Part shown: positions 31,851 through 32,606 of the stretch, one piece after another
Position numbering within the stretch: position 1 is the stretch's first letter
Layout: each line of letters begins with the position of its first letter
Assembly: GCF_044324875.1 (NCBI RefSeq)
Contig: NZ_CP172185.1
Direction: 5' to 3' (one strand)
DNA length: 64,000 nt
DNA from: Escherichia coli
GTDB lineage: Bacteria > Pseudomonadota > Gammaproteobacteria > Enterobacterales > Enterobacteriaceae
Notes under the pieces: generated by a model
The model's input: the letters and a program-made list of their open reading frames with translations, nothing else
Databases searched by the model: none
Told to the model about the DNA's origin: nothing
Made by a program: the position numbers and the translations under genes

Positions 31851-32606
31851 AATCATTATTCACGTATCAGGAAGAGTTAAGGTTACAAGGGGGACTCGAT
31901 GGCGGTCAATATTTCACGACTAACGCCATTTTAAAGAAGCAGTGCGGTAGGTAGTTTCGAATGAGGGCTGGTGTTTTGGTACGTGGCACGCCACTGCAAT
32001 GTATTTATCCATCAGTACTCATTCAAAAGTACCTGGAAAAAATGCCCGCTATGCCAAGCGGGCAAATTGCTTACATGTGGAATTAAGTAATTAACGATAA
32101 AGCCAGAGTATTATCATTTATCATGCCTCTTCATTTAATCAGGTTAATTACTCAAATCACTGAACTATTCTCTGTTCGCTCACTGATGATAAGTGAAGTG
32201 TCACAACCACGATTTGTATGTGGACCAATGCTGTAGAGTAAGGATGAAATGTCTCTGCCACGCCTTAAACATCTACTACTGACTAGAACCGCCGTCGAAT
32301 GCAGAAGAGTCTTGTGAGCATTACAGGAGTCTGGCTTTGGTCATTAATCAACGCTATTTAGATATAAATTTCTAACACTCAAAAAACGATTCTCACGAAT
32401 AAATTATAACGGGTGGTTTTTATCATACAGTGAAATAACCTTTTGCTTATTAAATTTAACATTCTTGTGCTAAATTAATTAAAAGTACCATGTATAGCAT
32501 ATGAAGCTGTTAATGCCAGCAATTGTCTCAAATGAGCGATTTTTTATAGTGACAAACAATAATAACATTAAAAATAGCCATGTAGACATTAACTGAGGAA
32601 AAGACA

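Follow-up and report, generated by a model that had tools for sequence, protein, structure and literature searches.

We analysed a 64,000-nucleotide stretch of the Escherichia coli chromosome (RefSeq assembly GCF_044324875.1, contig NZ_CP172185.1; "the window" below, with positions counted from its first base) and examined a hairpin that lies in the 756-bp spacer between the tRNA gene ileY and ypjCB. BLAST shows that bases 31700-32700 are 100% identical to many RefSeq genomes, and the gene order is gab operon, glaH, a ygaQ-like gene, ileY, the spacer, ypjCB, a pinH remnant, ypjA and ssrA. The spacer corresponds to NC_000913.3 2,785,012-2,785,761 in E. coli K-12, where it runs in the opposite orientation. 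Its G+C content is 37.0%, compared with 49.6% for the whole window, and all of its open reading frames (ORFs) have 45 codons or fewer. Neither the identical RefSeq genome (Prokaryotic Genome Annotation Pipeline) nor the K-12 record carries an annotated feature between ileY and ypjCB. The initial annotation of this DNA had remarked that nothing is annotated on the minus strand upstream of the hairpin, and both records agree with it. The features around which the analysis turns are the following.

31775-31850, plus strand: ileY, gene for tRNA-Ile2 with anticodon CAU, found by ARAGORN and Rfam (tRNA) and annotated in RefSeq as tRNA-Ile.
31955-32120: conserved block linked to ileY, present as a single copy per genome.
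32037-32042, minus strand: U6 tract (A6 on the plus strand), directly 3' of the hairpin on the minus strand and invariant in all sequences.
32043-32064, minus strand: hairpin with an 8-bp stem, 6 G-C pairs and a 6-nt loop; a candidate intrinsic terminator, or hairpin 2 of a plus-strand RNA.
32607-34061, plus strand: ypjCB, intact, 484 residues.

On the plus strand, positions 32036-32064 read G AAAAAA TGCCCGCT ATGCCA AGCGGGCA. The minus-strand reading is UGCCCGCU-UGGCAU-AGCGGGCA followed by UUUUUUCC. Sequence, terminator scan and folding of both strands bear out the stem, loop and U-tract as they were initially described; on the minus strand the element has the shape of an intrinsic terminator, a G+C-rich stem-loop with an immediate U-tract. 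Its fold energy is -15.9 kcal/mol on the minus strand and -15.4 kcal/mol on the plus strand. A consensus scan of 31400-32900 returned it as the sole terminator-like site (minus strand, tail TTTTTTCC), under loose criteria by which 0.9 sites are expected in shuffled sequence. We therefore give more weight to a strict definition: 8 perfect pairs, at least 6 of them G-C, a loop of 3-8 nt and at least 6 T in 8. This strict motif appeared in none of 2000 dinucleotide shuffles of the 756-bp spacer, and chance is excluded as the origin of the motif. Six strict loci occur in the 64-kb window, the hairpin included. Of the other five, about two coincide with the 3' end of a same-strand gene and about three lie elsewhere; with only some two of five control hits at gene ends, motif shape alone is suggestive and no proof of function. 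The hairpin sequence occurs once in the window, its only variants are C32047T and, in Escherichia albertii, the loop change A32056G, and variable positions start right past the U6 tract, at 32030-32035. Upstream of the hairpin on the minus strand there is no annotated gene, and a predicted promoter lies 68 nt away. As a separate observation, a gallium-resistance evolution study (PMC6928379) lists, for one K-12 population, a polymorphism (G to A, frequency 19%) at NC_000913.3 2,785,563, which is window position 32049 in the hairpin stem; this may be noise or a mapping artefact of the hairpin.

Sequence diversity around the hairpin was measured in an alignment of 19 complete genomes sampled evenly down a BLAST ranking. 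To these were added 67 metagenome loci fetched by the pattern of 31990-32028, which excludes the hairpin; the fetch needed an exact match, and those 39 positions are thus conserved in the metagenome set by construction. The diversity figures come from the BLAST-selected genomes only (15 genomes) and are free of this ascertainment bias. Nucleotide diversity is 0.0084 in the block (31955-32120), 0.055 in the left flank and 0.072 in the right flank, that is, 7-fold lower in the block. Values like those of the flanks are expected at unconstrained E. coli sites. Even inside ileY diversity reaches 0.031, with 7 segregating sites, above that of the adjoining block. Within the block, identity is 99.4-100% for nearly all distinct E. 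coli variants and 98.2-98.8% for three that come from metagenomes or are flanked by insertion sequences (IS), whereas most flanks show 87-97% identity. Because block diversity lies so far below that of the flanks, the block appears to be under purifying selection, and on these figures neutrality is excluded for it.

The block accompanies ileY wherever it was found. Of 5426 complete E. coli genomes, 3113 contain the block and 3149 (58%) contain ileY, with constant linkage and constant orientation; in 3094 of the genomes the block occupies one place. The same arrangement holds in E. albertii, where the block adjoins ileY in 3 genomes and 2 metagenome contigs, all identical to one another within it. 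Between the two species the block is 88.6% identical, whereas the E. albertii flanks, among them the spacer from ileY to the block (31851-31950), are unalignable with those of E. coli. E. albertii has ykgO, ykgM and ykgR, on the opposite strand, after the block where E. coli has ypjCB. Since that species has block and ileY with other neighbours, the block travels with ileY and not with ypjCB. We note in passing that ykgO and ykgM are paralogue genes of zinc-independent ribosomal proteins, which in E. coli K-12 lie far off, near 0.31 Mb.

Only these two lineages carry the block. A wider scan of genome collections returned E. albertii only, besides a Planococcaceae metagenome-assembled genome in which one contig is K-12-like, probably through contamination. 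Phage records gave no match to the block, and the three matches in a plasmid collection are all records of 4.8-4.9 Mb, i.e. of chromosome size. Ten IMG/VR matches proved to be chromosomal flanks of ileY-integrated islands or of the ssrA region, and a phage or plasmid origin was rejected. A repeat element of the REP/BIME or ERIC kind was likewise rejected, the block being single-copy per genome and the hairpin unique in the window.

Conservation within the block has sharp edges around the stretch that reads leftward into the hairpin. Of the 68 bases of 32037-32104, one, at loop position 32056, separates E. coli from E. albertii. To the left of this core, 3 of the 7 positions in 32030-32036 differ between the species and E. 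coli itself is polymorphic at 32032, 32033 and 32035; to the right, 4 of the 5 positions in 32105-32109 differ. Sequence conservation of the core in related species is above neutral, with diversity at 0.009 as against 0.055-0.072 in the flanks, and a candidate promoter stands beyond its right edge.

32037-32104, minus strand: candidate small RNA of 67-68 nt, 5'-GGCUUUAUCGUUAAUUACUUAAUUCCACAUGUAAGCAAUUUGCCCGCUUGGCAUAGCGGGCAUUUUUU-3', at + strand 2,785,508-2,785,575 of K-12 (NC_000913.3).
32110-32115, minus strand: candidate -10 hexamer GATAAT (ATTATC on the plus strand), invariant among E. coli variants and E. albertii.
32133-32138, minus strand: candidate -35 hexamer TTAAAT (ATTTAA on the plus strand; TTACAT in E. 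albertii), with a 17-bp spacer.
32111-32139, plus strand: published in-silico ypjC promoter, with 17 bases between its hexamers in the window, overlapping the minus-strand candidate hexamers.
32087-32095 and 32143-32151: inverted 9-mers GTAATTAAC and GTTAATTAC, which bracket the candidate promoter (sequence inspection).

The pattern of change around the hexamers resembles that of a promoter. Ten interspecies differences fall in the 17-bp promoter spacer, and so do all five E. coli polymorphisms of 32116-32138 (32122, 32125, 32128, 32129 and 32132). Of the 12 hexamer positions 1 differs between species, compared with 15 of 29 around them (Fisher p=0.013). In minus-strand direction, the layout is a -35 element, a 17-bp spacer, a -10 element, a variable discriminator, a start at G32104 or G32103, the conserved transcript, the hairpin, U6 and variable sequence. 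The candidate 68-nt RNA is predicted to fold into a loose 5' part and the terminator, at -17.7 kcal/mol. Counted from a start at 32104, the inverted 9-mers, both conserved in E. albertii, lie at about +10 to +18 and -39 to -47. In RNAalifold they pair with each other on either strand, and they could form a long-range RNA helix or serve as a pair of operators.

Binding of the transcription machinery to this spacer has been reported. Shimada et al. (2014; PMC3946193) found by genomic SELEX (systematic evolution of ligands by exponential enrichment) that sigma-70 holoenzyme bound the H-NS-marked spacer in vitro. They picked a constitutive ypjC promoter in silico, printed as TTATCA-18-TTTAAT, and assigned its direction from gene orientation. 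The genomic SELEX binding assay gives no promoter direction. As E. albertii lacks ypjCB after the block, a rightward promoter would have no conserved product there.

We tentatively favour the view that the hairpin is the terminator of an unannotated minus-strand small RNA of 67-68 nt. RNA polymerase would start at about 32104/32103 from a sigma-70-type promoter (-35 TTAAAT at 32138-32133, 17-bp spacer, -10 GATAAT at 32115-32110) that stands back-to-back with the predicted ypjC promoter, and would stop at the U-tract at 32037. This view supposes that the leftward promoter fires, that transcription terminates at the hairpin and that the RNA is stable. The RNA may act through its conserved, mostly unpaired 40-nt 5' part, either by base pairing in trans or as an antisense to ileY read-through. 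Its gene would be part of a module of about 170 bp linked to ileY, an accessory tRNA gene, in both species. A minus-strand small RNA explains the terminator shape, the exact boundaries of the core, the promoter-like conservation and the missing rightward product in E. albertii.

The initial annotation had offered several explanations of the hairpin, and they fared differently. For an unannotated small RNA, the strong conservation of the block argues for a functional element, most simply a small RNA, while the K-12 sources searched contain no transcript end that would go with it. A small ORF on the minus strand can be set aside, since indels of 1 nt and 4 nt between E. coli strains interrupt the sole candidate, 32157-32261 (34 codons). 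The suggested transcript antisense to the leader of the 484-residue frame (orf484, that is, ypjCB) does not agree with the coordinates either. The candidate RNA, running from 32104 to 32037, lies upstream of the predicted ypjC promoter at 32111-32139 and diverges from it, so that it would have no overlap with the leader. The leader label itself was an assumption, and the only published prediction of a ypjC promoter lies to the right of the hairpin. A fossil terminator of a lost gene would have diverged like the flanks (0.055-0.072), and conservation of the block argues against such decay.

The opposite strand of the block has features of its own, which include an ORF across the hairpin.

31959-32024, plus strand: hairpin 1, a 66-nt imperfect stem-loop, fully paired only on the plus strand in E. 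coli.
32065-32092, plus strand: hairpin 3, AAUUGCUUA/UAAGUAAUU, with one G.U pair, A/U-rich; invariant, hence uninformative on covariation.
31961-32086, plus strand: ORF of 41 codons (MRAGVLVRGTPLQCIYPSVLIQKYLEKMPAMPSGQIAYMWN) that spans the hairpin, with start and stop shared with E. albertii.

On the plus strand, 31955-32104 folds at -48.5 kcal/mol (z -3.4; none of 200 shuffles is as stable), compared with -38.4 kcal/mol (z -1.8) on the minus strand. The plus-strand fold has three elements: hairpin 1, the terminator-like hairpin and hairpin 3. Consensus folding gives -63 for the plus and -47 for the minus strand. Six E. albertii substitutions and one O157 substitution fall in the stem of hairpin 1, and all of them keep plus-strand pairing. 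Across nine distinct variants, the 41 plus-strand pairs are paired in 99.7% of cases. Eight pairs vary on one side only and are all still paired on the plus strand except in a metagenome singleton; counted by substitution, 8 of 9 stem changes keep plus-strand pairing, the same singleton being the exception (binomial p=0.02). The 41-pair structure comes from folding one of the compared sequences as plus strand, which biases this comparison toward that strand. Every E. coli variant folds 10-16 kcal/mol more stably as plus than as minus strand, having 6-8 G.U pairs and zero mismatches on the plus strand, equivalent to 6-8 mismatches on the minus strand. In E. albertii the two strands fold equally well (-51.0 and -50.9).

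At the protein level the 41-codon ORF looks unconstrained. The ratio of replacement to synonymous change (pN/pS, Nei-Gojobori) is 0.95 over codons 1-25, with 9 replacements that include G to D, L to S and L to Q, and 0.59 over the whole ORF (9 replacement and 4 synonymous changes). The substitutions in codons 1-25 fit the hairpin better than they fit a protein. The 18 nt past the stop codon are conserved as well as the C-terminal codons. No NCBIfam model matches the product, whose homologues occur in Escherichia only, and inspection of the 41 residues found no hydrophobic segment. In one complete genome, L016, an extra A frameshifts the ORF. With pN/pS near 1 in codons 1-25 and Escherichia-only homologues, the ORF was rejected as a protein gene. 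A type I toxin-antitoxin locus is not supported either, the product being non-hydrophobic, free of protein-level constraint in codons 1-25 and without a family match.

In the K-12 Term-seq of Adams et al. (2021; PMC7815308), the mature ileY 3' end is the only one listed for the region. They also report a Rho-dependent region at K-12 + strand 2,785,647, with upstream/downstream reads of 55/19 in untreated cells and 114/154 under bicyclomycin. Another lies 28 nt past ileY on the ileY strand, with 154/30 reads untreated and 308/218 under bicyclomycin. Both calls use 800-nt windows and are hence coarse. K-12 thus transcribes both strands weakly, and read-through on both increases when Rho is inhibited; the weak transcription on the strand of the candidate RNA, with its increase upon Rho inhibition, speaks for a minus-strand RNA. 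A Rho-loading site downstream of the hairpin was considered and rejected, as the minus-strand RNA has 20 C and 17 G in 82 nt, a mild bias only.

Several results weigh against a minus-strand small RNA. The initial annotation had stated that the lack of a minus-strand 3' end near 32036 would refute its reading, and K-12 data do lack it. K-12 Term-seq in three conditions (LB at optical density (OD) 0.4, LB at OD 2.0, and M63; PMC7815308) lists no 3' end at + strand 2,785,570-2,785,577, a range that includes the expected 2,785,575, but the K-12 stem carries a mismatch. Likewise, where 3,376 K-12 RNA-seq data sets were assembled into transcripts, there is no coordinate within 2,785,100-2,785,599 in six supplementary tables, one of them covered in part, and the supplements of a small-RNA prediction study based on RIL-seq (sequencing of interacting RNAs after their ligation) contain nothing for ileY, ypjC or 2,785,400-2,785,699. 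All of these transcript data come from K-12, with its weakened C32047T stem, under standard laboratory conditions in which H-NS-bound DNA is largely silent; H-NS marking or the weakened allele could explain the absent signal. The promoter candidate matches the consensus at 8 of 12 positions, and the AT-rich spacer contains 6 promoter-like hexamers where shuffles lead one to expect 7.0. The mismatch itself is a further difficulty. C32047T, one of the eight stem changes compatible with plus-strand pairing, gives a G.U pair on that strand but places an A.C mismatch in the stem of the minus strand, at a cost to the folded 68-nt RNA of about 6 kcal/mol (from -17.7 to -11.5). Roughly half of E. coli have it, K-12 and O157 included; among E. 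coli metagenome loci the count is 38 of 65, and at least 5 sampled genomes share it. So common a weakening allele suggests that selection on the stem as a minus-strand terminator is loose. Furthermore, conservation runs 80 nt past the terminator (31955-32036), which a minus-strand small RNA does not explain; the substitution pattern there favours a plus-strand RNA structure. Double-sided compensatory changes are absent from the nine variants, which represent two lineages only.

That some functional RNA is encoded at the block, on one strand or the other, is probable. The strongest competitor is a structured plus-strand RNA of about 150 nt (~31950-32104), on the strand of ileY and about 105 nt past it, made by ileY read-through and processing or from an unrecognised promoter. 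In such an RNA the hairpin would be internal and the A6 an unpaired linker. We consider this doubtful, yet it accounts for what the minus-strand RNA leaves over: the stronger fold and consensus fold, the one-sided substitutions of which eight of nine are compatible with pairing, the tolerance of C32047T, which is neutral on the plus strand, the 80 nt of extra conservation, and a block that always accompanies ileY in the same orientation. It does so at the price of several gaps. No conserved promoter stands upstream, where 31851-31950 is unalignable between the species, and the consensus scan found no plus-strand terminator. K-12 Term-seq shows the mature ileY end only, with a Rho stop just after ileY and, over the next 800 nt, 30 reads. 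Double-sided changes are absent from the structure, which was taken from the plus strand and is matched by the minus strand in E. albertii. The 5-nt conservation gap at 32105-32109 and the resumption of conservation at the -10-like hexamer are also left without explanation. The two RNAs are compatible, and a convergent pair covers all of the data, as the least economical claim. In its fullest form ileY would carry a two-strand module, a plus-strand read-through RNA and a convergent 68-nt antisense, tuning ileY or the adjacent AUA-rich, H-NS-silenced genes; we regard this as unlikely.

Three further explanations are less likely still. A working terminator without a product of its own would halt leftward transcription, begun in the ypjCB promoter region or in the AT-rich island bound by H-NS, before this could run antisense to ileY; alternatively, the hairpin would be the leftover of an ancestral minus-strand gene. 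The geometry fits, the hairpin being placed between a divergent promoter region and a convergent tRNA gene; the minus strand is weakly transcribed in K-12, with more read-through when Rho is inhibited, in a spacer marked by H-NS; and in E. albertii the minus-strand ykgM-ykgO pair lies about 350 nt upstream of the hairpin. We nevertheless think it improbable, since near-identity between species of the 40 nt upstream of the stem is unexplained, as is hairpin 1 downstream, a fossil should diverge like the flanks and the weakening allele is common. A little less credible is a chance hairpin beside an A-run, with the conservation stemming from a DNA-level site or from local recombination history. 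It would agree with the roughly three of five other strict window hits that lie away from same-strand gene 3' ends, with the lack of expression seen in K-12, and with a CGATAAA stretch in the core that we take to resemble the H-NS high-affinity motif. It would have to overcome the shuffling result and a 7-fold drop in diversity found in two species with different neighbours, and a strand-asymmetric G.U pattern is unexpected for a site in double-stranded DNA. Least credible of all is a small-protein gene on the plus strand whose 41 codons contain the hairpin, perhaps with the minus-strand RNA as its partner, as type I toxin-antitoxin loci are laid out. E. coli and E. albertii agree in its start, stop and length, without indels, a purine-rich Shine-Dalgarno-like GGTGG/AGGT stands 6-8 nt upstream, both substitutions in codons 26-41 (one interspecies, one within E. 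coli) are synonymous third positions, and hairpin 1 holds the AUG in its base, as happens in toxin mRNAs that are translationally silent. Against this stand the pN/pS of codons 1-25, the equal conservation of the 18 nt after the stop, the lack of a hydrophobic helix, relatives and families limited as described above, and the L016 frameshift.

Known RNA families do not cover the locus. At the gathering threshold, Rfam finds nothing in 28000-41000 beyond tRNA and transfer-messenger RNA (tmRNA), and a permissive scan of 31930-32170 yields at most 24.5 bits where thresholds are at least 41 bits. The sub-threshold minus-strand matches (RprA, AgvB, Trp leader and others, 12-20 bits) all start at the hairpin end, 32034-32037, and in the RprA alignment the match rests on the terminator hairpin. 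In kind, the minus-strand candidate comes closest to ordinary terminated small-RNA genes of enterobacteria. It shares with their terminators the 8-bp G+C-rich stem, the 6-nt loop, the U6 and a preceding A/U-rich single-stranded stretch, and with the genes a predicted RNA of about 68 nt, an intergenic position and a predicted sigma-70-like promoter of its own. It differs from them in the stem mismatch present in roughly half of E. coli.

For the competing plus-strand RNA, the nearest candidates in kind are tRNA 3'-trailer RNAs such as 3'ETS-leuZ. This is the 3' external transcribed spacer RNA of a tRNA, which acts as a sponge for RyhB and RybB and runs from the tRNA to the operon's own terminator. 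Like it, the block is a conserved non-coding element downstream of a tRNA gene, on the same strand and always linked; unlike it, the block is separated from the tRNA by a non-conserved 105-nt spacer, no plus-strand terminator was found, and in K-12 a Rho-dependent stop lies just after ileY. Overlapping or convergent sense-antisense pairs and type I toxin-antitoxin loci are represented by SdsR/RyeA, ibs/sib and par of pAD1. The layout here would be similar if both predicted RNAs exist: a short terminated RNA fully complementary to the 3' part of a structured RNA with a small ORF whose AUG lies in a stem. In contrast to type I toxin-antitoxin loci, the ORF product is non-hydrophobic and its first 25 codons are unconstrained. 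Shared bidirectional terminators differ in that the hairpin here has a U-tract on one side only. REP/BIME and ERIC elements are likewise intergenic, imperfectly palindromic and strand-asymmetric stem-loops, whereas the block is single-copy and K-12 has no repeat feature annotated there.

If either RNA is real, a conserved RNA gene that has escaped annotation would be added to E. coli K-12, the most thoroughly annotated bacterial genome. It may have been overlooked through its absence from Salmonella-type comparison genomes, its position in H-NS-marked DNA and the weakened K-12 terminator allele. Its absence from Salmonella-type genomes follows from the products of the ygaQ-like gene and the 41-codon ORF, which have no close relatives outside E. 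coli and E. albertii. The gene to which the block is tied, ileY, is an accessory tRNA-Ile2 gene that reads the rare AUA codon, is present in 58% of complete genomes and serves as an integration site; this makes a role in the handling of AUA-rich foreign genes, or in shielding the tRNA gene, testable. If true, the two-strand module would give E. coli a kind of tRNA-linked sense/antisense regulator so far not described there. If the locus is silent, a textbook terminator shape and conservation still leave the functional strand unsettled.

The genes around the spacer differ from K-12 in several respects, and two of them complete the map.

28963-31215, minus strand: ygaQ-like amylase gene, intact, 750 residues.
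39730-40092, minus strand: ssrA, the tmRNA gene.

Both the 484-residue ypjCB and the 750-residue ygaQ-like frame are unbroken here, whereas in K-12 ypjCB falls into two parts, ypjC and ypjB, and ygaQ is a pseudogene; in most sampled strains ypjCB is interrupted by internal stops or frameshifts. The E. coli and E. albertii versions of the ygaQ-like protein share only 60% identity, and beyond these two species it has no close relatives.

Compared with K-12, ileY of the window has paired changes in its anticodon stem (28G-42C to A-U, and 27G.43U to G-C) and one additional difference in a variable-loop base. Its 3' 47 nt (31804-31850) are an attachment site for integrated islands in other strains. 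An integrase-bearing island or an IS element lies directly upstream in several E. coli and E. albertii genomes, where homology to the window starts at 31804/31805. About 50 nt past ileY, at 31899-31935, the plus strand has a weak hairpin of GAUGGCG, a 19-nt loop and CGCCAU, followed by UUUU, which could be a poor ileY terminator. Its U-run is shorter in K-12, for which published data point to Rho-dependent termination. At the far side of the region, ssrA lies 160 nt from the ypjA stop, without a CP4-57 prophage between them. No smpB is annotated on the 5' side of ssrA. What stands there is an integrase fragment (41981-42583) and one of IS3, together with hypothetical and sugar-utilisation genes, a content that suggests an island placed unusually with respect to ssrA.

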